Virus record (IMG/VR): IMGVR_UViG_2541047934_000011
From: a virus
Taxonomy: Duplodnaviria > Heunggongvirae > Uroviricota > Caudoviricetes
Strand: one strand, 5' to 3'
Length of the DNA: 7,686 nucleotides
The notes beneath the pieces are model-generated. The model had not been told where the DNA came from. It worked only from the letters and a program-made list of their open reading frames with translations, and did not search any database. Below are positions 1 through 7,686 of this stretch, piece by piece. Within the stretch, counting starts at the first letter, position 1, and every line of letters starts with the position of its first letter. A program made the position numbers and the translations under genes.

Positions 1-91
1 TAGACTGGCCCCCTGAATCTCCAGACAACCAGTATCACTTATTTAAGTGATAGTCTTAATACTAGTTTTTAGACTAGTCATTGGAGAGCAG

Positions 92-457
92 ATGATTGAT
101 GTCTTAGGACCGGAGAAACGCAGACGGCGTACCACACAGGAAAAGATCGCAATTGTTCAGCAGAGCTTTGAACCGGGGATGACGGTCTCCCTCGTTGCCC
201 GGCAACATGGTGTAGCAGCCAGCCAGTTATTTCTCTGGCGTAAGCAATACCAGGAAGGAAGTCTTACTGCTGTCGCCGCCGGAGAACAGGTTGTTCCTGC
301 CTCTGAACTTGCTGCCGCCATGAAGCAGATTAAAGAACTCCAGCGCCTGCTCGGCAAGAAAACGATGGAAAATGAACTCCTCAAAGAAGCCGTTGAATAT
401 GGACGGGCAAAAAAGTGGATAGCGCACGCGCCCTTATTGCCCGGGGATGGGGAGTAA
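92..457 (+). CDS. insC: IS2 transposase OrfA (InsC), HTH DNA-binding protein, 121 aa
   Basis: ATG at 92 preceded by GGAGAG (83..88). Translation [26 protein letters not shown]...PLLPGDGE is recognised as IS2 InsC. The ORF-track start at 47 is an upstream in-frame GTG extension and is unlikely to be used. Confidence 0.9.
409..415 (+). other. Programmed -1 ribosomal frameshift slippery heptamer A_AAA_AAG joining OrfA to OrfB
   Basis: AAAAAAG sits in the insC zero frame (gca aaa aag tgg = A K K W), and insD is in the -1 frame from here. IS3-family elements including IS2 make the OrfAB transposase by -1 frameshifting at A6G. Confidence 0.75.
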
Positions 458-1320
458 GCTTAGTCAGCCGTTGTCTCCGGGTGTCGCGTGCGCAGTTGCA
501 CGTCATTCTCAGACGAACCGATGACTGGATGGATGGCCGCCGCAGTCGTCACACTGATGATACGGATGTGCTTCTCCGTATACACCATGTTATCGGAGAG
601 CTGCCCACGTATGGTTATCGTCGGGTATGGGCGCTGCTTCGCAGACAGGCAGAACTTGATGGTATGCCTGCGATCAATGCCAAACGTGTTTACCGGATCA
701 TGCGCCAGAATGCGCTGTTGCTTGAGCGAAAACCTGCTGTACCGCCATCGAAACGGGCACATACAGGCAGAGTGGCCGTGAAAGAAAGCAATCAGCGATG
801 GTGCTCTGACGGGTTCGAGTTCTGCTGTGATAACGGAGAGAGACTGCGTGTCACGTTCGCGCTGGACTGCAGTGATCGTGAGGCACTGCACTGGGCGGTC
901 ACTACCGGCGGCTTCAACAGTGAAACAGTACAGGACGTCATGCTGGGAGCGGTGGAACGCCGCTTCGGCAACGATCTTCCGTCGTCTCCAGTGGAGTGGC
1001 TGACGGATAATGGTTCATGCTACCGGGCTAATGAAACACGCCAGTTCGCCCGGATGTTGGGACTTGAACCGAAGAACACGGCGGTGCGGAGTCCGGAGAG
1101 TAACGGAATAGCAGAGAGCTTCGTGAAAACGATAAAGCGTGACTACATCAGTATCATGCCCAAACCAGACGGGTTAACGGCAGCAAAGAACCTTGCAGAG
1201 GCGTTCGAGCATTATAACGAATGGCATCCGCATAGTGCGCTGGGTTATCGCTCGCCACGGGAATATCTGCGGCAGCGGGCTTGTAATGGGTTAAGTGATA
1301 ACAGATGTCTGGAAATATAG
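415..1320 (+). CDS. insD: IS2 transposase OrfB (InsD), DDE integrase-like catalytic domain, 301 aa as annotated (expressed as an OrfAB fusion)
   Basis: Translation [21 protein letters not shown]...[24 protein letters not shown] is recognised as IS2 InsD. It is in the -1 frame relative to insC and overlaps its 3' end. Stop TAG at 1318..1320. Confidence 0.9.
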
Positions 1321-1544
1321 GGGCAAATCCATTAACACATAAGCAATCAGTATGATTGGTTAGGTGATTACTCTTACTGCGCACAGCGCAATAGATTTCT
1401 TCGTGGGCGTTACCGCCAACGAAGTTACACGAAGAAAGTAACGCTTTGCTTTCGGTGTGAGCGGAACGGGCCAGCCACGAAGCCCGAAAGGTAGCGGAGT
1501 AAGGCTGCTTGCCAGAGAGTGAAGCTAACGCCGGAAGGCAAAAG

Positions 1545-1625
1545 ATCATATATATAGATATAAAGAATATTATTATTATGATCTAATTAATAATCTAATA
1601 TAGTTTTATTAATAGTCTTATTGTA
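1545..1625. other. Near-pure A/T tract (DNA-unwinding-element-like), bracketed by the 8-bp inverted repeat AGATCATA / TATGATCT
   Basis: About 80 bp of almost exclusively A/T immediately after a GC-richer segment (1340..1545). Inverted repeat AGATCATA at about 1543..1550 and TATGATCT at about 1578..1585. No coding potential. Confidence 0.5.
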
Positions 1626-1628
1626 GTT

Positions 1629-1664
1629 CACAGTGACCTACCCCCTAGCTCACTATGACCTACC
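1629..1664 (+). repeat. Two direct copies of CAC(A/T)(G/A)TGACCTACC spaced 22 bp
   Basis: cacagtgacctacc at 1629..1642 and cactatgacctacc at 1651..1664 (12 of 14 identical). Confidence 0.8.
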
Positions 1665-1694
1665 GTTACTACCAATCATCACATAGCACTCACT

Positions 1695-2474
1695 CTGTGT
1701 AATGCCTTTCTATGTGTGTGCCATAATCCCCTATATTCCCTGTGTAAATCATAGAATATCCCTAACTTATTCCTGTGTAATTCCATACTAAAAATTCAAT
1801 GAAAAGTAGCTTAAAAGTGCAATTCTTACTTTCTTCACTTTTACATCACTTTCGCAAATCCTTGTGTAGTGCGGCCTACAGAGCACCATCAGAAATTGTT
1901 GGCTAAAAATTGTTCTGCTTGTTTCTTAACGAGTTTTCTCGTTTGTGCAAATTTTAAAATTTATTTTGTTTTTACAGCCTTATTTCGTGTAATGCGTGGC
2001 ATAGCAAGCCCTTTTCTTGTGTTGTCAAGACATTTGGCAACGTTCAAACATCTGTTTAGAAATGCCAAATTGTTGATCTAACAAATAAACCTGTATAAAC
2101 AGAACACCATTTAATCTATTCCCCTGTGTAATCCACTACATCACACAATAAAAACAAAAAAACCTTTAATTATGTTTCATAGCATACAAAAGTCAACAGA
2201 AGCCCTCTCGTGCTCCTACGTAAAAAATCCATCATTTTCCCCTGATACATCAACTCAAGGCGTTCTATGTGTTCCTTAGTGCATATTACGTTTATTATGT
2301 TAAATTGATTTTGGCCTATATTTTGACCTGCACCCGCATAAACACTGGTTTCATCGCTTACAGTCCTTGTGAGACGTGGTGCTGTTTCTAGCATCTGATC
2401 CGACATAAAACCGATCATTCTCGTGTTTAGTGAAAGTTTAGTGAGAGACATTACAGAAAGGCTTTCTGTGTAAT
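1695..2474 (+). repeat. Dispersed same-orientation motif CTGTGTAAT (5 exact copies plus close variants) in AT-rich non-coding DNA
   Basis: Exact CTGTGTAAT at 1695..1703, 1773..1781, 2124..2132 and 2466..2474, and CTGTGTAAA at 1740..1748. Variants TCGTGTAAT at 1985..1993, TATGTGTGTG at about 1711..1720 and TTGTGTAGT at about 1862..1870. All are on the + strand. A 9-mer recurring this often in under 1 kb is far above chance. Confidence 0.85.
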
Positions 2475-2610
2475 GATTTAATAGGTAAAAACGATGTTGA
2501 TTACGCAAGAAAATTCCTTGCTGATATTTGGGGATTCTGGATTTTCCAGATCGGGGGGCGCTGAAAATCGCGTTAAGCACCTCTCGCAATCTAGCCATAA
2601 GGGAAGGGAT

Positions 2611-2675
2611 ATAGGTATTTAGATGTATTTATAGCTATTTATGGCTATTTATTTTTTATTTACCTTTATTTAAAA
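2611..2675. other. Phased T-tracts with 10-bp periodicity (intrinsically curved DNA)
   Basis: ataggTATTT agatgTATTT atagcTATTT atggcTATTT attttTTATT taccTTTATT: TATTT recurs every 10 bp, i.e. helically phased A/T tracts, a signature of bent DNA at promoters or origins and of H-NS-bound DNA. Confidence 0.7.
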
Positions 2676-2741
2676 ATAACCTTATAAATCAATAAGATAC
2701 ACAACTATCTGTTTATATTTTAATCAATTAAATCAAGTTTA

Positions 2742-2780
2742 ATACCCTTAAATCACCTGAAAATACCCTTAAATACCCCA
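2742..2780 (+). repeat. Direct repeats ATACCCTTAAAT with 21-bp spacing, plus a third partial copy ATACCCCA (iteron-like)
   Basis: ATACCCTTAAAT at 2742..2753 and 2763..2774 (exact, 21 bp apart), then ATACCCCA at 2773..2780. Confidence 0.8.
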
Positions 2781-2942
2781 ATAATTAATTTTAAGGTTTT
2801 CCGTGTTCTCTTCTGCATTATGAAAATGCAAAATAAGGCACAAAACAAGCGCACAGACGCATTAAACACACATCACCTATACATCCCTATACCAAGCAAT
2901 GAAAATAGCGTTAGAATGCGTCCTGTTGCGTTCTGGAGATTT

Positions 2943-3101
2943 TCAGAAATCCTCTCTAAGCCATTTCAACTCATTAAGGAGTTTTCTTTCTTCGTTCTCT
3001 CTCTGTTTACGCTCTAGCCAGGCTTTTCCTTCTGGCGTAGACAGGAACTTACGAGCGTGAATCTTGCGGTTATTACGTTTGATAGCTGCAATGTTTTTCA
3101 T
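2943..3101 (-). CDS. Small basic hypothetical protein, 52 aa (not in the supplied ORF track)
   Basis: Minus-strand ATG at 3101..3099 preceded by AGAGG with 6-nt spacing (...atacAGAGGcacacgATG). Translation MKNIAAIKRNNRKIHARKFLSTPEGKAWLERKQRENEERKLLNELKWLREDF, stop TGA at 2945..2943. Lys/Arg-rich, no hydrophobic segment. It overlaps the +-strand ORF 2820..3017, which has no RBS. Confidence 0.4.
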   Translation of the reverse strand: MKNIAAIKRNNRKIHARKFLSTPEGKAWLERKQRENEERKLLNELKWLREDF

Positions 3102-3923
3102 CGTGTGCCTCTGTATTCATATGAAAATTAACAAGTTACATACTACACAGGGAGACTACGCATAAAACACAATACAAGTAAAGATACATTTTCAAGACAA
3201 TAGGAGCCATAAAGCGCCTTTGATGGGCTACCCCAAAAAATAAGCGCCGTAGGCGTATCCACTAAAAGGGCTTTTTCACAAAAGCTATGAAGTCTTAGCA
3301 GTTCTTCTCTTATCAGGCACCCGTTGTACTCCGGTGGACGAAACCGTGCTAGAGCTTGATTCTTTCCCGATCAAGTTAGGTTTTGAAGAGGTGGGCTTTG
3401 ATCCACTATTGCACTTAAAACTCTTCCCATCATTTAGCCTGTTTATCCTCTGCAACGTCTCACGACGTGTAGCATCATTGGACACCGCGCCAGGTGTGGA
3501 ACATCTTGCTAAGAGTTTTGGTAGAAGGTTTAGAGACGGTGGCACGTCTTCCAGCTTCAAAGGAACTTGTTACGAGGTTGAGCCTGGGAACTACTCGCCC
3601 ATACGTGTTACACTACCAAAGCCCATAACAACGTATAGGCGTTTGTAAGTGATAACAGAAGATACAATTTCTTAGAGAAGTTAAGCTAAGTTATTGATTT
3701 TCTTGATTGTGCGATAATAGGAACAATACACATAGGCGATAAGCTTTGTTTTTGTTGCCTTTTTTATTGTTCATTTTTTATAGATACCCCCAAAAGTACC
3801 CCCATATCTTTTTCCGCCCCTGAAATTTGGTTGTTATTCATACAGCATATCAGGCGGTAACGCTCTCCCTTTAACCCACTTATTGTATGATAGTGCTATC
3901 CCACAATAAGGAATCAGCCAGCC

Positions 3924-4283
3924 ATGAGAATGACCAGCCGCAAAAAAGAGATACTTAGCTACTTTGAACCGGATAACCTCGAATGGGTGACTGGTGAGAT
4001 TGGTGCGCCGCCGTTCGATGTGTCGGGTGTGGCCTACCTGCTTCATGGCATGGTGTCGTTCGATAAGCGTCACCAGCTCGAATCAACCCGGCGCACACTG
4101 GAAAGCATGGTTGCTGGTGGACTGCTTGAGCGGGTGACAGTGTATGAATCGCGCCAGATACGGCGCGGCGGTGATACTAACGCAACGGTCGTGCGCTACG
4201 GTTTACCCGGTCAGTGCGCTGTTATGCGCGATACTGGCGGCGCTGACAACGCAATATCAGGTGAATACATGCGGGTCAGTTAA
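3924..4283 (+). CDS. Hypothetical protein, 119 aa (possible small winged-helix-like DNA-binding protein)
   Basis: ATG at 3924 with AAGGA about 11 nt upstream. GC-richer, E. coli-like codon usage. Translation MRMTSRKKEILSYFEPDNLEWVTGEIG... is not recognised as a known family. The 3' end overlaps the convergent pRiA4b-ORF3-like gene by 8 bp. Confidence 0.5.
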   Translation: MRMTSRKKEILSYFEPDNLEWVTGEIGAPPFDVSGVAYLLHGMVSFDKRHQLESTRRTLESMVAGGLLERVTVYESRQIRRGGDTNATVVRYGLPGQCAVMRDTGGADNAISGEYMRVS

Positions 4284-4818
4284 TAGCCTGCAATCTGTCG
4301 TTGATGCGGCTCAGGTCGTAAACCCGGCGTTCAATATCCAGCATCAGGAAATTGTGGATCTCGGCCTGCTCAGGATTATCAGACTCTCTGGCCTGTAATA
4401 GCAATTCATTGTAACCATGCAAGCCGCCTGAGTTTTCCGCCGGGGTGGTGCCTTTCCCACGCAGGCAGCTAATGGGCTGATTACTCGTATCGTGTGTTTG
4501 CTTCTCCAGCACAATGACGCAATCCCACCAGTCGCCAAAGTCATACGTGTAAACCAGCTTGTCACCCTCATTCTGGAGCGCCGCCCATAGTGGCGTGATT
4601 GCCGCGTTACCCATGCTTTCATCCTCACCCCATACGCGATACTCGCTACCTGGATCACCTTTACGCCCTTTCTCGAACATATACAGGTGTTCGTCATTCC
4701 AGCCAAAAGCTAACTGGATCACGGCATGAAGTTTACTAAAGGGGATTTGCTCTGGAACCAGCACACGCCGCCATATAGGTGGTTTGCTGTCTCGGATGGT
4801 TATCTTTAGCTGGTACAT
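4276..4818 (-). CDS. Plasmid pRiA4b ORF-3-like family protein (Pfam PRiA4_ORF3 / MM3350-like domain), 180 aa, function unknown
   Basis: N-terminus MYQLKITIRDSKPPIWRRVLVPEQIPFSKLHAVIQLAFGWNDEHLYMF carries the signature of the pRiA4b ORF-3-like family (Y.LK.TL.D..PPIWRR..VP...F..LH..IQ...GW...HL..F). ATG at 4818, weak SD (AGGA 8 nt upstream). Confidence 0.8.
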   Translation of the reverse strand: MYQLKITIRDSKPPIWRRVLVPEQIPFSKLHAVIQLAFGWNDEHLYMFEKGRKGDPGSEYRVWGEDESMGNAAITPLWAALQNEGDKLVYTYDFGDWWDCVIVLEKQTHDTSNQPISCLRGKGTTPAENSGGLHGYNELLLQARESDNPEQAEIHNFLMLDIERRVYDLSRINDRLQAIN

Positions 4819-4938
4819 GCAAATCCTGAATAAATGCGAATCGGAAGGATAACGATACTGACGTACTCACAATTCTGTAAAGGTGAATAAAGGAAATTTG
4901 CTTAATACGCATAAGTTACATGTGGAATAATCCCATAT

Positions 4939-5124
4939 CTACCTGCGCGGCGCTGGCTTCTTCCACTGGTAGGCAGGTGCTCGCATCATTTCGCGGAACC
5001 TGTCGCGCCGGGCTATATCGGCATTAACTGATCGTTCTATCTCCCGTTGATCTGCCTGTGTAAGCTGGTGGCCTCCGTGCTCAAGTTTGGCGATGGTCAA
5101 TAAGGCTATTTCGCGTGGTGTCAT
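4939..5124 (-). CDS. Small hypothetical protein, 61 aa
   Basis: ATG at 5124..5122 preceded by GAGGG at 8-nt spacing (ccaGAGGGtatgacgtATG). Translation MTPREIALLTIAKLEHGGHQLTQADQREIERSVNADIARRDRFREMMRAPAYQWKKPAPRR. Co-oriented between the PerC-like and pRiA4b-like genes. Confidence 0.45.
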   Translation of the reverse strand: MTPREIALLTIAKLEHGGHQLTQADQREIERSVNADIARRDRFREMMRAPAYQWKKPAPRR

Positions 5125-5350
5125 ACGTCATACCCTCTGGAAGAATGAAACACGCCCGGATTAAATTTCATTTTTCGCGGGTATAAAAAAACGATGGGGC
5201 GGGCAGTCCCGGATAGTCAGGGCTGTAGAGATTTGACTACCCCCTCCCCACTGGATTCAGGTTACTGCTATTCCGTTAAGCGCTGCTTACGGGGATAGCT
5301 GCGTTGTGATTTTGACCATTCAGGTCGCCGCTATTTCCTCACCGATTGGG

Positions 5351-5373
5351 TGCTACGCGCGCGCGTACTTGTC
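5351..5373 (+). repeat. Repeat family copy a: TGCTA(CG)5TACTTGTC, containing the 14-bp palindrome TACGCGCGCGCGTA
   Basis: tgctacgcgcgcgcgtacttgtc, followed by CCGAAATACCAG. Near-identical to copy b at 6761..6781 apart from one extra CG unit. Lies in the intergenic region downstream of the PerC-like gene. Confidence 0.85.
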
Positions 5374-5395
5374 CCGAAATACCAGAAACCGCCAG

Positions 5396-5417
5396 CCAGA
5401 GGATGATTTCCCTCTGG
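5396..5417 (-). terminator. Candidate intrinsic terminator hairpin downstream of the PerC-like gene
   Basis: On the minus strand: CCAGAGG-gaaatcat-CCTCTGG (7-bp stem, 8-nt loop) starting 5 nt after the stop (5424..5422), followed by a moderately T-rich tail (ctggcggTTTcTggTaTTTcgg). Not a canonical U-run, so weak. Confidence 0.3.
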
Positions 5418-5421
5418 TGGT

Positions 5422-5703
5422 CTACCTTTGCCTCTTGCCGCCATTTAACCGGAAGGCGTTACCGTTCGGTTGCGCTATCCCCATGCGGTGTTGCGTTTCG
5501 GTAACAGCTTTATGCAGGTCGCCAAATTCCTCAACCTTCACGGGCGGGCGCTTCACGTTCTCCAGACACGTTTCACGGCGGCGCTTTATCCATTCCCGAT
5601 CATCGTCCTCGGTGCATAACAGCATGACTTCCATCCATCGTGCGGCAGCTCTCCGGTATAGCCCTTTTGACTCCAGCTCTTCAGCTTTCCTGTCCCTTAT
5701 CAT
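5422..5703 (-). CDS. PerC-family (Pch-like) transcriptional regulator, 93 aa
   Basis: ATG at 5703..5701 with strong SD GAGAGG (5714..5709). Translation MIRDRKAEELESKGLYRRAAARWMEVM...REWIKRRRETCLE... carries the conserved PerC-family core (AE.LE.KGL.RRAA.RW..VM) recalled from EPEC PerC and EHEC Pch proteins. Confidence 0.75.
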   Translation of the reverse strand: MIRDRKAEELESKGLYRRAAARWMEVMLLCTEDDDREWIKRRRETCLENVKRPPVKVEEFGDLHKAVTETQHRMGIAQPNGNAFRLNGGKRQR

Positions 5704-5708
5704 TTCTG

Positions 5709-5722
5709 CCTCTCAGATTATA
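5709..5722 (-). promoter_or_regulatory. Candidate sigma70 -10 element (TATAAT) and SD for the PerC-like gene, abutting the tandem repeat array
   Basis: Minus-strand reading: ...tgaaccaacacctttttgcttatctaTATAATctGAGAGGcagaaATG. Perfect TATAAT at 5722..5717, and the position of a -35 would fall on the first repeat unit. The leader would be very short. Confidence 0.4.
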
Positions 5723-5739
5723 TAGATAAGCAAAAAGGT

Positions 5740-5784
5740 GTTGGTTCAGTTGGTTCAGTTGGTTCAGTTGGTTCAGTTGGTTCA
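5740..5784 (+). repeat. Five perfect head-to-tail copies of the 9-bp unit GTTGGTTCA (iteron- or operator-like array)
   Basis: Exact tandem units at 5740..5748, 5749..5757, 5758..5766, 5767..5775 and 5776..5784, followed by a 43-bp AT-rich spacer. Confidence 0.95.
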
Positions 5785-5827
5785 ATTTGTAAAGATTGTT
5801 GTTTTTATTGTGTTTTTTCTGAAATAT

Positions 5828-5878
5828 TGAACCAACATCAACTCATTTTGAACCAACACAGCCCAGCTCTGAACCAAC
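5828..5878 (-). repeat. Three inverted-orientation copies of the same unit (TGAACCAAC on the + strand) phased exactly 21 bp apart
   Basis: TGAACCAACA at 5828, 5849 and 5870. Each begins a 21-bp unit (tgaaccaacatcaactcattt / tgaaccaacacagcccagctc / tgaaccaacaacacagcgata), so copies sit two helical turns apart on the same DNA face. Confidence 0.95.
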
Positions 5879-5931
5879 AACACAGCGATAGATTTGTGAT
5901 TGGTCCGTTATTTTCTGGCTGATATTTGAGC

Positions 5932-5948
5932 GTATAACAGTGTTATAC
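5932..5948. promoter_or_regulatory. 17-bp palindrome GTATAACA-g-TGTTATAC (operator-like) overlapping a candidate extended -10 upstream of the RHH gene
   Basis: Perfect inverted 8-bp arms around a central G, followed by GTATAC at 5954..5959. TGTTATAC resembles an extended -10 (TGnTATAc). Located 33 to 49 bp upstream of the ATG at 5981. Confidence 0.4.
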
Positions 5949-5980
5949 AGTGGTATACTGTATGGATATTACTCACTGAT

Positions 5981-6436
5981 ATGGTCTTTGCAATGAGCAA
6001 ATCTAATCTGGTCGCGTTCCGCATCCCATCTGAATTGCAGGATGAGTTTAATCGGTCTGTTCTCGCTTCTGGAGGAGATAAAACCTCCTGGCTTGTTGAT
6101 GCGATTCGCATGAAGCTGGGGCAGCCGGAAAAGTCTATTGATTCACGAATGCTTGGGCTGGTGGAGCGCATGGAAAAAGCCGCTGCGTCGCTTATTGCCG
6201 GAAAGCCGAACATCCCACCAAAACCATATAACGAAACGGCAGTTATAAAGATCATTGCCGATACCATCCAACAGGGATTTGATAATGGGCGTGTGATAGC
6301 TGAACGGATCAATGAAGCAGGCTATCAAACAAAAGCTGGTAAAGCGTGGGATAAAGATATTTACAGCGCGTGGAAGCGTCAGGGAAGCAATGCTGAAAAG
6401 CTAAAAGCAGTGATTGATTGTAAGGTCAGCGTATAA
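5981..6436 (+). CDS. Ribbon-helix-helix (Arc/MetJ/CopG-like) DNA-binding protein with a C-terminal extension of about 100 aa, 151 aa (147 aa if the ATG at 5993 is used)
   Basis: From the second ATG: MSKSNLVAFRIPSELQDEFNRSVLASGGDKTSWLVDAIRMKLG fits the RHH pattern (beta-strand with alternating hydrophobics and R.P.EL, helix A, G.[ST] N-cap turn, helix B). Neither ATG has an obvious SD, so the start is uncertain. Stop TAA at 6434..6436. Confidence 0.6.
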   Translation: MVFAMSKSNLVAFRIPSELQDEFNRSVLASGGDKTSWLVDAIRMKLGQPEKSIDSRMLGLVERMEKAAASLIAGKPNIPPKPYNETAVIKIIADTIQQGFDNGRVIAERINEAGYQTKAGKAWDKDIYSAWKRQGSNAEKLKAVIDCKVSV

Positions 6437-6515
6437 ACATGAGTGCCCATTGGAAAGTTGCTTGGGCCAATACCTTTATACACCAGCAGGTAGTGACGAT
6501 AGGTGAGGATCAGAT

Positions 6516-6737
6516 ATGAAAGGCAGAACGCCACACATTGAACATCAAGCCAACCACTTCCCTGATGTTCGCAATGAGATGATTGCCATTCGCGGTGATA
6601 TGCACGGATTGGAGCGTCGAATTATTGATAAGATTGATGAAAATAGAGATAAGGCCAGTGAAAATCAAAAGTGGATCATCGGCCTGTTGATTTTATCAAT
6701 TCTTATCCCGCTACTTATCGCATTGGTCACAAAATGA
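6516..6737 (+). CDS. XhlA-like (hemolysin XhlA family) small tail-anchored membrane protein, 73 aa
   Basis: Strong SD GGTGAGGA (6502..6509) 6 nt before the ATG. Predicted coiled-coil N-terminus and a single C-terminal hydrophobic helix (WIIGLLILSILIPLLIALV). The ENQKW motif just before the transmembrane segment recalls the XhlA family of phage lysis-associated proteins. Confidence 0.6.
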   Translation: MKGRTPHIEHQANHFPDVRNEMIAIRGDMHGLERRIIDKIDENRDKASENQKWIIGLLILSILIPLLIALVTK

Positions 6738-6760
6738 ATATCCAATGTGTATGCTGTCGA

Positions 6761-6781
6761 TGCTACGCGCGCGTACTTGTC
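6761..6781 (+). repeat. Repeat family copy b: TGCTA(CG)4TACTTGTC, containing the 12-bp palindrome TACGCGCGCGTA
   Basis: tgctacgcgcgcgtacttgtc, followed by GCAAAATATCAG. Matches copy a over about 35 bp with one fewer CG unit and a few substitutions. Lies 24 bp downstream of the XhlA-like stop. Confidence 0.85.
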
Positions 6782-6998
6782 GCAAAATATCAGGCAAAGG
6801 CCAGATTCAGAAAGTCGTGATAACCACCAGCACAACATGAGAGGTCATGTAACGCGATTTATCACACCAGATACATGTGATTGGTGTACCCGCATAAAAC
6901 ATCGTCATAGCGCGTCCTGTGCGCATATACGCCGATAATCAACACATCACCACCACTCTGTCTCATGTAGAGAACAGTTTTATGGTATCCCCCGCCAT

Positions 6999-7148
6999 CG
7001 TGTGCGTACTGGTCGGACGCAGTTGCAAAAAATTTTGCAACTGATACCCCTCGCGCGCGTACTGGTCACGAAATTGGTGTTTTGCTGTGGCAGTGATATC
7101 AGAAAAATCTTCCTGTTTCACATAAAGCGGATATGCGCGTACTGTAAC
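6999..7148 (+). promoter_or_regulatory. Repeat and palindrome cluster upstream of the 7259 gene: three more family copies plus an operator-like palindrome
   Basis: GTGTGCGTACTGGTC at 6999..7013; palindrome AGTTGCAAAA-aa-TTTTGCAACT at 7021..7042; TCGCGCGCGTACTGGTCACGAAAT at 7051..7074; TGCGCGTACTGTAAC at 7134..7148. All repeat copies are in the same orientation. Confidence 0.6.
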
Positions 7149-7258
7149 GGCCCCATCAACTGGGAGCGGACTTGAAATCCCGACCCAAGCTATGTACCAA
7201 ATGCCATGTCTTGGATATATGATGATTGCCATTCTAAACAACGCTAAAGGGGGTTGGT

Positions 7259-7537
7259 GTGAGCAGAAAAGATACTAAAGAATTGCTAACTATCTGCATG
7301 GTGTACTTTTCAATTTATTTTTGTGCATACATGATAGTCCCAGATGAGTTTGAACATGGCAGTATTATTTATTCCATAACATTCTATTTTTTAGAGCTAA
7401 CACCAATTTTGGCTATCCTTTTGGGAATACATATTTATTTTTCCTTAAAAAAAGAATCGACTAATTGGGAGAAGGTATGGAGAGACAGAGGATTTCTAAG
7501 GAAGGTGCGAATAAGCGGGGAAATTCTTCTCGGCTGA
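7259..7537 (+). pseudogene. Small AT-rich two-transmembrane-helix membrane protein gene interrupted by IS5 (native part 7259..7499, about 80 codons; the last 12 codons and the stop are IS5-encoded)
   Basis: GTG start at 7259 with SD AGGGGG 5 nt upstream. Two hydrophobic helices (LLTICMVYFSIYFCAYMIV and IIYSITFYFLELTPILAILLGIHIYFSL) then a charged tail. The reading frame runs across the IS5 junction at 7500, so the C-terminus ...RKVRISGEILLG is read from the IS5 terminal repeat. The original 3' end is unknown. Confidence 0.5.
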
Positions 7538-7686
7538 CTCAGTCATTTCATTTCTTCATGTTTGAGCCGATTTTTTCTCCCGTAAATGCCTTGAATCAGC
7601 CTATTTAGACCGTTTCTTCGCCATTTAAGGCGTTATCCCCAGTTTTTAGTGAGATCTCTCCCACTGACGTATCATTTGGTCCACCC
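7500..7686 (-). mobile_element. IS5, partial (first 187 bp of the element; the window ends inside it)
   Basis: GGAAGGTGCGAATAAGCGGGGAAATTCTTCTCGGCTGACTCAGTCATTTC... from 7500 matches the IS5 terminal inverted repeat and adjacent sequence as recalled. It is preceded by CTAA (7496..7499), which fits the known IS5 target preference C(T/A)A(G/A). The transposase is on the minus strand. Confidence 0.88.
7646..7686 (-). CDS. insH: IS5 transposase InsH, C-terminal fragment (5'-truncated by the window end)
   Basis: Minus-strand translation of 7684..7649 gives VDQMIRQWERSH followed by stop TAA (7648..7646). This matches the recalled InsH C-terminus ...ADQMIRQWERSH, with one A-to-V difference. Confidence 0.7.
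   Translation of the reverse strand, partial: VDQMIRQWERSH

Follow-up and report, generated by a model that had tools for sequence, protein, structure and literature searches.

The stretch of DNA analysed here (the window) comprises 7,686 nucleotides of the virus record IMGVR_UViG_2541047934_000011 (Caudoviricetes) and carries, in the divergent region between a leftward gene of the PerC family and a rightward gene for a 147-aa protein resembling ribbon-helix-helix (RHH) proteins, an array of eight copies of the 9-bp repeat GTTGGTTCA. A sequence-only reading, made from the letters and their translations, had drawn attention to this array and proposed that it might be a partition centromere, an operator or an iteron origin, with the RHH protein as its likeliest binder. 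The features of the region are collected in the table below, and our subject is the relation of the array to the satellite island in which it lies, and to the primase-helicase (Pri-Rep) encoded by that island.

The anatomy of the array was borne out. The repeat finder TRF returned the five perfect head-to-tail units at 5740-5784 as a run with 100% matches and a score of 90, the three inverted copies lie at 5828, 5849 and 5870, i.e., at a step of exactly 21 bp, and the 43-bp spacer between the two arms is 81% A+T, compared with 55% for the window as a whole, with the local GC minimum (23%, at 5790-5849) falling within the spacer region. The array therefore has the layout expected of the origins discussed below, opposed iteron sets with at least two iterons per side (here five forward and three reverse) around an AT-rich centre. 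Eight occurrences of the 9-mer compare with 0.06 expected in the window, and none of 200 shuffles reached eight. A search of the window against Rfam returned no family. Judged by these numbers and by the comparisons that follow, the array appears to be a real and functional feature.

Features of the PerC-RHH region of the window, with the Pri-Rep gene of an intact relative
Feature	Position	Strand	Remark
att core TCCTATTATC, end of the island	3713..3722	-	homology to EcCIMP1 and L002 starts here
PerC-family gene, first gene outward from the tandem iterons	5422..5703	-	Pfam PF06069, E=3.7e-30
Putative TATAAT hexamer inside conserved promoter-like motif ttttGCTTATcTATA	5717..5722	-	between the tandem iterons and perC
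Left arm of module B, five tandem 9-bp iterons GTTGGTTCA	5740..5784	+	TRF period 9, 5.0 copies
Candidate DNA-unwinding element, AT-rich spacer of 43 bp	5785..5827		opens with conserved motif ATTTGTAAAGA
Right arm of module B, three inverted iterons, TGAACCAAC on the + strand	5828..5878	-	
Palindrome GTATAACAgTGTTATAC and third 10-bp-phased repeat (GTATACT) over a likely -10	5932..5961		separate unit
Gene for the 147-aa protein (151 aa from the 5981 start)	5993(5981)..6436	+	conserved start MSKS... at 5993
Pri-Rep gene in L002	26618-29374		918-aa primase-helicase

A satellite island with two mirror-image modules

The chromosome of Escherichia coli SCU-172 contains the region with 100% identity, and about 10% of complete E. 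coli genomes (541 of 5426) have sequence that matches it. From 3713 to 7686 the window is the distal end of a phage-inducible chromosomal island (PICI) like EcCIMP1, a PICI shown experimentally to be induced and transduced by the P22-like phage Kapi1, and for which the sequence of the att core has been published (PMC11773190). In two intact relatives (L002 and L003; loci are cited by such numbers where they have to be told apart) the island is 17-20 kb long, beginning with an integrase, an AlpA-type helix-turn-helix protein, AntA/B, DUF4222, Ash and a 918-aa primase-helicase with TOPRIM and DUF927 domains, which is the Pri-Rep, and continuing with P22-like ejection-protein genes, the 147-aa gene, the array, PerC, pRiA4b-ORF3 and att. 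EcCIMP1 (L054) likewise has the order int-AlpA-AntA/B-Ash-Pri-Rep-ejection proteins-...-PerC-att. That the island is recoverable as an episome follows from a circular record of 12,152 bp deposited as an E. coli plasmid (NZ_CP148430.1, L050), which is an excised EcCIMP1-like PICI with int, AntA/B, an Icd-like gene, Pri-Rep, the RHH-like gene, PerC and both of the iteron modules described below; a second record, NZ_LT599831.1 (19,226 bp), may be another excised island.

In SCU-172 (NZ_CP054353.1, 1097025-1134560; L001/L053) an IS1-mediated inversion, with its ends at two IS1 copies of opposite orientation, has broken the island in two; the inverted segment contains yagU-ecp and the distal island end. 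One half, at tRNA-Thr, runs from int through Pri-Rep to a frameshifted ejection gene, and the other holds a 2106-nt gene, the RHH-like gene, the array, PerC and att, now about 23 kb from the remainder, with ecp-yagU lying inverted in the interval, so that the island cannot excise as a unit. The Pri-Rep of the tRNA-Thr half is intact (918 aa) and has a C-terminus of the GTTGGTTCA type. Tandem copy number in E. coli genomes is mostly three, sometimes two or four; five units, an unusual number, occur among the genomes compared only in SCU-172, which is consistent with slippage under relaxed constraint. After the inversion the copy of the array in the window is probably a relic, stranded from its island and with its repeats expanded in number.

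The island carries the array twice. Forty-six loci from other Enterobacterales were collected via the 147-aa protein and then searched for the 9-mer, and we refer to the copy 3' of pri-rep as module A and to the copy in the window as module B. Module A starts 20-30 bp past the pri-rep stop codon (L002, L003, L007, L008, L023, L030, L032, L050, L053 and L054), a list that includes both EcCIMP1 and the genome of the window, where it has 2+3 iterons. It is thus module A that occupies the position immediately 3' of rep that is typical of a PICI origin; the array in the window does not, for which reason we class it with displaced second modules rather than calling it a canonical ori.

In an alignment of five genera (Escherichia, Cedecea, Rosenbergiella, Serratia and Chimaeribacter), modules A and B share three tandem iterons, ATTTGTAAAGA, a T-rich spacer of about 43 bp and three inverted iterons. 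No iteron column differs between the genera, and the 12 bp that separate one inverted iteron from the next are free to vary, while the length of the spacer and the ATTTGTAAAGA/TTGTTTT motif are kept in both modules of all five. The two modules are mutually inverted, and the main systematic difference between them is one helical turn, the spacing being 21/21 bp in B and, in the majority of A copies, 11/21 bp. The A copies of different genera resemble each other more than A resembles B, from which we conclude that the duplication is old and that both copies have been retained. At least ten genera have kept the exact sequence of the 9-mer along with the pattern of its orientations and the distances between copies, in the midst of flanking DNA and inter-iteron spacers that diverge, and the full origin anatomy of module B, with the 43-bp AT-rich spacer and ATTTGTAAAGA, is present in E. 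coli, Cedecea, Rosenbergiella, Chimaeribacter and a Klebsiella capsid-forming PICI (cfPICI).

The distance between the modules is what varies. EcCIMP1-like islands have 1.8-8 kb of cargo between A and B, and module B lies 1.8 kb from pri-rep in the excised island L050, about 6 kb in L002, about 8.4 kb in EcCIMP1 and about 23 kb in SCU-172. In compact relatives (L009, L033, L042, L017, L049, L027/L039 and L051) A and B are adjacent, directly 3' of rep. A separate observation concerns Pantoea coffeiphila (L013), which has two B-type modules (9721-9824 and 10972-11075) 1.25 kb apart that flank its RHH-like gene, with no Pri-Rep within 10 kb of them.

A BLASTn comparison of the array with phage and plasmid collections, as the sequence-only reading had suggested, yielded no characterised replicon, just mis-filed satellites: the excised PICI of 12 kb, 'plasmids' from Klebsiella that are cfPICIs, and one phage record that includes a cfPICI. 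That reading had also been correct in treating the region as neither an annotated centromere nor an annotated origin, and the EcCIMP1 paper (PMC11773190) mentions no origin, no iterons and none of these repeats. One of the Klebsiella 'plasmids', the 15,995-bp NZ_CP069874.1 (L051), is such a cfPICI and carries HK97 genes for capsid, portal and protease; it has 11 GTTGGTTCA iterons and a Rep with the same motif in its C-terminal domain (CTD) as the GTTGGTTCA-type Pri-Reps. Within the 106.5-kb record of Klebsiella phage P12620-1, a block (PQ569648.1, 95970-106070; L052) has the gene sizes and gene order of L051 and the same iteron region 3' of its Rep, which suggests either that the assembly is chimeric or that a satellite was co-packaged with this phage.

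Covariation of the iterons with the C-terminus of Pri-Rep

Pri-Rep is a mosaic of a P4-alpha-like zinc-ribbon/TOPRIM primase, a DUF927 helicase like those of Cch and of the Reps of Staphylococcus aureus pathogenicity islands (SaPIs), and a CTD predicted to be a winged helix. The Pfam domains are Zn_Ribbon_Prim, Toprim_3 and DUF927 (E=1.5e-46), the primase part (aa 7-361) is 33% identical to P4 alpha by tblastn, and phmmer matched 8TCH ('Pathogenicity island protein', E=1.9e-11) and the Cch helicase 5DGK. An AlphaFold2 model of the C-terminal 217 residues (pLDDT 85.7) retrieved the C-terminal region of Cch with Foldseek (E=4e-5), and its last domain matched the winged-helix oriT binder TcpK with a probability of 0.98. 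The island itself thus supplies a helicase of the DUF927/MCM-like type with a primase, fused or paired, as do islands with known PICI origins, and an intact copy is present in the genome of the window.

When the iteron 3' of each rep gene was compared across 23 elements, its sequence was found to track the last ~75 residues of Pri-Rep, independent of the helicase core. An alignment of 25 sequences showed the CTD to be conserved except for a hypervariable segment linked to the iteron, and each of some seven iteron types corresponds to its own variant of this segment of ~20 aa, in discordance with the identity of the helicase core. The commonest pairing, that of the CTD GRGYQRKSPRIxGRQINVYVL with GTTGGTTCA, occurs in 14 loci, including L028, L034 and L051. 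In L028 and L034 the helicase core is 59-62% identical to that of the E. coli protein and the CTD 79-86%, and the iteron is GTTGGTTCA in both; when the Rep of the cfPICI L051 is aligned with the EcCIMP1-type Pri-Rep, the match begins only at about residue 338 of the latter. The reverse is seen in L049, whose core is 86% identical and whose CTD reads YQGRVREDGRQ, with TGTTGTCTC as its iteron (the segment is YQRKSPRIQGRQIN in the GTTGGTTCA-type Pri-Rep and YQGRVREDGRQIR in L049). L017 pairs the CTD QRKTPRI..ITV with GTCGGTTCA, and divergent CTDs go with AGTGTGTCA in L027 and L039, with TGGGATAAC in L019, L038 and L043, and with YCGGTTCA in L047; L020, in which the C-terminus is truncated, has no iterons. 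Throughout, the overall architecture of the array is unchanged. As judged from these alignments, CTDs have been exchanged between divergent helicase cores, the iteron would be specified by the C-terminal winged-helix domain of the Rep as in other PICI origins, and the ~20-aa segment is pointed to as the determinant of iteron specificity.

In SaPIs the origin follows rep immediately on its downstream side and has 6-12 iterons, divided equally between the two flanks of an AT-rich centre and opposed in orientation, which are bound by the C-terminal winged-helix domain of Rep (PMC9371898), and the same layout occurs in E. coli PICIs, where it is functional for EcCICFT073 (PMC6092414). We therefore regard it as likely that the array at 5740-5878 is a Pri-Rep iteron/origin module of an EcCIMP1-type PICI, the distal member of a mirror-image pair, in which opposed sets of sites for the Pri-Rep winged-helix domain would flank an AT-rich unwinding region. 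Among the options of the sequence-only reading it is the iteron origin that gains support, from the sister module 3' of pri-rep and from the covariation with the CTD. The excised circular island L050, in which both modules are present, is at most indirect evidence of autonomous replication dependent on Rep. In the events that we envisage, a P22-like helper (e.g., Kapi1) would induce the island via AlpA and Pri-Rep would be made; its winged-helix domain would bind the iterons on both sides of the spacer, and the protein would melt the spacer, load itself as a helicase and prime synthesis, as shown for SaPI Reps. Binding, melting and self-loading are steps that we infer from homology and from the SaPI and PICI literature. 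The outward perC operon has its promoter-like motif directly beside the tandem arm, so that occupancy of that arm by Pri-Rep would probably affect this promoter as well, which is speculative, as is the notion that module B itself fires as an origin or acts in the manner of the P4 crr.

A number of points weigh against an origin in the window. Binding and origin firing are read throughout from sequence comparison, and the assignment of the winged helix from a predicted structure. Module B is 1.8-8 kb from rep in intact islands and about 23 kb from it here, so that one of the defining features of a PICI origin, its position, fails; in the compact relatives L042, L033 and L009 the spacer of the second module is GC-rich, i.e., B is not always origin-like; and a tandem copy number of 2-5 indicates a loose constraint on the left arm. 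The specificity classes that carry the covariation number about seven and are not independent phylogenetically, and as the genes of one mobile element are linked, some further protein outside the comparison could be co-varying with the iterons. Module B may accordingly be an auxiliary or regulatory binding site for Rep and not a firing origin.

Neighbouring control elements and other readings of the array

This last thought leads to the alternative that survives best, and to which we assign a lesser but real chance: that B is an auxiliary Rep-binding region, serving to control the perC-operon promoter or to pair with A in copy control or cis activation, like P4 crr. It is favoured by the remoteness of module B from rep, by the GC-rich spacer just mentioned, by the precedent of P4, which reportedly needs two separated iteron clusters, and by the surroundings of the tandem arm, which in every locus, and with any iteron type, adjoins the promoter-like motif 'ttttGCTTATATA' and the first outward gene. 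In the form ttttGCTTATcTATA, given in the table, the motif comes after the distal tandem iterons of loci that represent five iteron types. Set against this are the 43-bp AT-rich spacer and ATTTGTAAAGA, which B retains and which would be superfluous for a pure operator, and the promoter itself: a strict scan of 5600-6100 for sigma-70 and terminator consensus sequences detected nothing, which makes all our statements on promoters motif-based. The -35/-10 region of a leftward PerC-like promoter that the array was said to abut is accordingly reduced to a TATAAT on the minus strand (5722-5717). An auxiliary role is, moreover, compatible with the origin-module reading, the binder being the same protein in both.

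The gene to the left was correctly recognised as PerC-like. Its product is identical to EcCIMP1_025 (WP_000617443.1), the same accession as in strain MP1, and the PerC of EcCIMP1 has been reported to silence LEE1 in Citrobacter rodentium (PMC11773190).

The label of the protein to the right is less secure. The 147-aa protein, whose MSKS... start is seen in more than 40 homologues, is 58-79% identical across satellites of Enterobacterales and has an invariant GYQTKxGKAWDKDIYSAWKR in its C-terminal domain. Pfam and PHROGs offered just a weak match of the C-terminal helical domain to a recombinase-like HTH_62 (E=0.23) and an unnamed PHROG, and a sequence profile search of the PDB with 18 homologues gave no match. 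In the AlphaFold2 model of the monomer, a disordered stretch (1-12) is followed by helices at 13-25 and 30-41, the N-terminus having a pLDDT of 45-62 and the C-terminal helical domain one above 90. Foldseek returned nothing significant with this model (all E>0.9), yet RHH proteins were enriched among these non-significant matches, the folds listed including Arc, CopG, NikA, AtaR and VapB, and one source calls a homologue an 'Arc-like DNA binding domain protein'. An RHH fold at the N-terminus is thus plausible: the label draws on a low-confidence model and on the enrichment among the Foldseek matches, and the Pfam and PDB sequence searches lend it no support. Identity with RgdR, a regulator said to occur in all E. 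coli PICIs, was considered and rejected, RgdR being a protein of 99 aa with an RGD motif.

What this protein probably does bind is the repeat next to its own gene. The 17-bp perfect palindrome that had been noted at 5932-5948 is present (GTATAACA-g-TGTTATAC, 8+1+8) and is included in a repeat with a period of 10 bp that TRF found at 5932-5958. Across loci, the type of the RHH N-terminal strand agrees with the type of the proximal repeat in 43 of 43 cases, without exception: the 24 loci with an NL[VI]AFR strand have the palindrome GTATAAC-N3-GTTATAC directly upstream of the 147-aa gene, and the 19 with an [LI]SVTFR strand have there the direct repeat GTCTTAC-N3-GTCTTAC. Because of this covariation the palindrome and repeats at 5932-5961, which had been taken as an element of the same array, are in our view a separate unit and a probable autoregulatory operator; the 147-aa protein would then be autoregulated and not the binder of the iterons. 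What has the look of a single control element is thereby resolved into two, the iterons for Pri-Rep and the operator of the RHH-like protein.

The proposal that the 9-mers are an operator or a partition centromere of the RHH-like protein, or a target of PerC, can be considered very improbable. In E. coli the array does lie in the divergent region between both genes, its sites are helically phased at 21 bp, and an RHH fold is plausible for the 147-aa protein at its N-terminus, but the strand type that covaries with the palindrome or direct repeat does not covary with the 9-mers, and this contradicts the RHH protein as the likeliest binder. The 9-mer array occurs with both RHH classes (4 of 24 and 11 of 19 loci) and is absent from many loci of each, and its occurrence is independent of both proteins: EcCIMP1 has module B beside PerC and lacks a homologue of the 147-aa protein, the Klebsiella cfPICI with its 11 iterons has neither RHH nor PerC, and an identical array lies 3' of pri-rep. 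PerC was rejected as the binder because its adjacency to the array is not conserved outside E. coli. For a centromere, finally, a partition NTPase would be expected, and no gene of the ParA, ParM or TubZ type is present in the annotated islands.

Still more improbable, in our estimation, is a helper packaging signal or a site bound by AlpA. The island needs a signal for packaging by its P22-like helper, none having been identified in PMC11773190, and the array does precede an operon; however, its two-armed, AT-centred layout is that of an origin, and its sequence tracks the CTD of Rep even in the cfPICI, which has a different packaging system (HK97 capsid genes). AlpA was rejected as the binder because the AlpA proteins of the cfPICI and of an EcCIMP1-like island are just 23% identical and their iterons identical. 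A non-functional, microsatellite-like expansion by chance of an intergenic variable-number tandem repeat, as might be suspected from the varying tandem copies and from the five-copy state unique to the rearranged island, has practically no standing given eight exact copies where 0.06 are expected, and is refuted by conservation of the 9-mer, its orientation and its spacing in at least ten genera.

The remaining features of the window can be described briefly. Directly 3' of the RHH-like gene, a 73-aa open reading frame (ORF; 6516-6737, + strand) ends in a hydrophobic helix and matches PHROG 6324 (E=5e-11) and, weakly, a holin PHROG. A pRiA4b ORF-3 gene (Pfam E=1.1e-42) converges with a 119-aa gene that has no family match, with an overlap of 8 bp (3924-4283, + strand, and 4276-4818, - strand); this two-gene accessory unit is kept at the att end of EcCIMP1-like islands (L002, L003 and L054) and could be defence or accessory cargo. 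Outside the island, between a second integrase/baseplate remnant and the att end of the PICI (47-3712), lie an IS2 with InsC/InsD-type ORFs and a programmed frameshift (47-1320) and an AT-rich, ORF-poor stretch of about 2.4 kb (1321-3712) with weak 10-12-bp tandem repeats at 1582-1622, 2610-2652 and 2741-2778, which together are probably the debris of another island.

Implications and comparison with known systems

The replication origin of the EcCIMP1 family, previously undescribed, would with these results be located, in the form of two mirror-image modules, and satellites could be sorted into replication-specificity (incompatibility) groups by their CTD and iteron. A more ambitious proposal, which we make tentatively and hold to be doubtful, is that a split, mirror-image pair of complete modules, each with iterons and unwinding element, brackets the whole cargo and ejection-protein region with both halves needed in cis, as in P4 with its ori and crr, that the perC operon is under the control of the initiator, and that the CTD code defines incompatibility groups. 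If true, PICIs would gain a new principle of organisation, an origin in two parts that encloses the cargo and has a transcriptional output built in, and expression of accessory genes, here that of a virulence regulator of the perC family, would be coupled to replication of the satellite. In the literature searched, which left the iterons of Fig. 2a of PMC6092414 outside its scope, we found no account of the EcCIMP1-family origin, of the mirror-image cargo-bracketing layout or of specificity in a short CTD segment. A full-text search for the 9-mer gave no relevant paper among the matches listed, and GTTGGTTCA is absent from the text of PMC6092414, in which the iteron sequences of Fig. 2a, not covered by that search, may include it.

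The arrays with which the sequence-only reading compared the 9-mers, i.e., the omega heptads of pSM19035, ParR/parC and StbA/stbDR of R388, are similar in having short direct and inverted repeats near the gene of a small DNA-binding protein. The likeness may hold for the repeats at 5932-5961 and the RHH-like protein, and does not hold for the 9-mer array, which neither co-varies nor consistently co-occurs with the adjacent RHH-like protein, is accompanied by no partition NTPase and belongs to an element that is integrative and not a plasmid.

Iteron plasmids offer another comparison. The Reps of pSC101, R6K, F, P1 and RK2 are WH1-WH2 initiators that recruit the host DnaB and DnaA. Their origins, like module B as proposed here, have initiator-binding repeats beside an AT-rich unwinding element and initiator sites over a promoter, and their repeats, as those described here might be, are determinants of incompatibility or handcuffing. 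They differ in that their iterons are 17-22 bp long, as opposed to 9 bp, and in that there is no WH1-WH2 Rep here, the initiator itself being the helicase-primase.

P4, with its ori and crr, is also an enterobacterial satellite. Its alpha protein is a multifunctional primase, helicase and origin binder that recognises short iterons through its C-terminal domain, and its two separated iteron clusters are reportedly both needed in cis. The resemblance extends to the two conserved clusters, orthologous sets of A and B being found across genera, and to the N-terminal primase domain, which is homologous (aa 7-361). Beyond that domain a tblastn comparison of Pri-Rep with P4 alpha detected no similarity, so that the homology does not run the whole length: the helicase of Pri-Rep is of the DUF927/SaPI-Rep type and that of P4 of the superfamily 3 (SF3) type. 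The type I iteron of P4, TGTTCACC, differs from the iteron described here.

The closest relatives are the origins of SaPIs and PICIs (SaPIbov1, SaPI1, SaPI5 and EcCICFT073). With these the modules share short iterons in two opposed sets around an AT-rich centre, an initiator that is a self-loading helicase of the DUF927/MCM-like type fused to or paired with a primase, an iteron specificity that would, by comparison, reside in the C-terminal winged-helix domain, and, in sister module A, the position immediately 3' of the rep ORF. The system is therefore not of a new kind, the architecture of PICI origins having been known since 2007 from SaPIs and since 2018 from Gram-negative PICIs. It is set apart by an iteron of nine nucleotides where penta- and hexanucleotides are quoted for SaPIs, by the P22-like podophage that serves the EcCIMP1 family as helper, and by a pair of complete mirror-image modules, the second of which lies beyond the cargo genes and beside the perC promoter.

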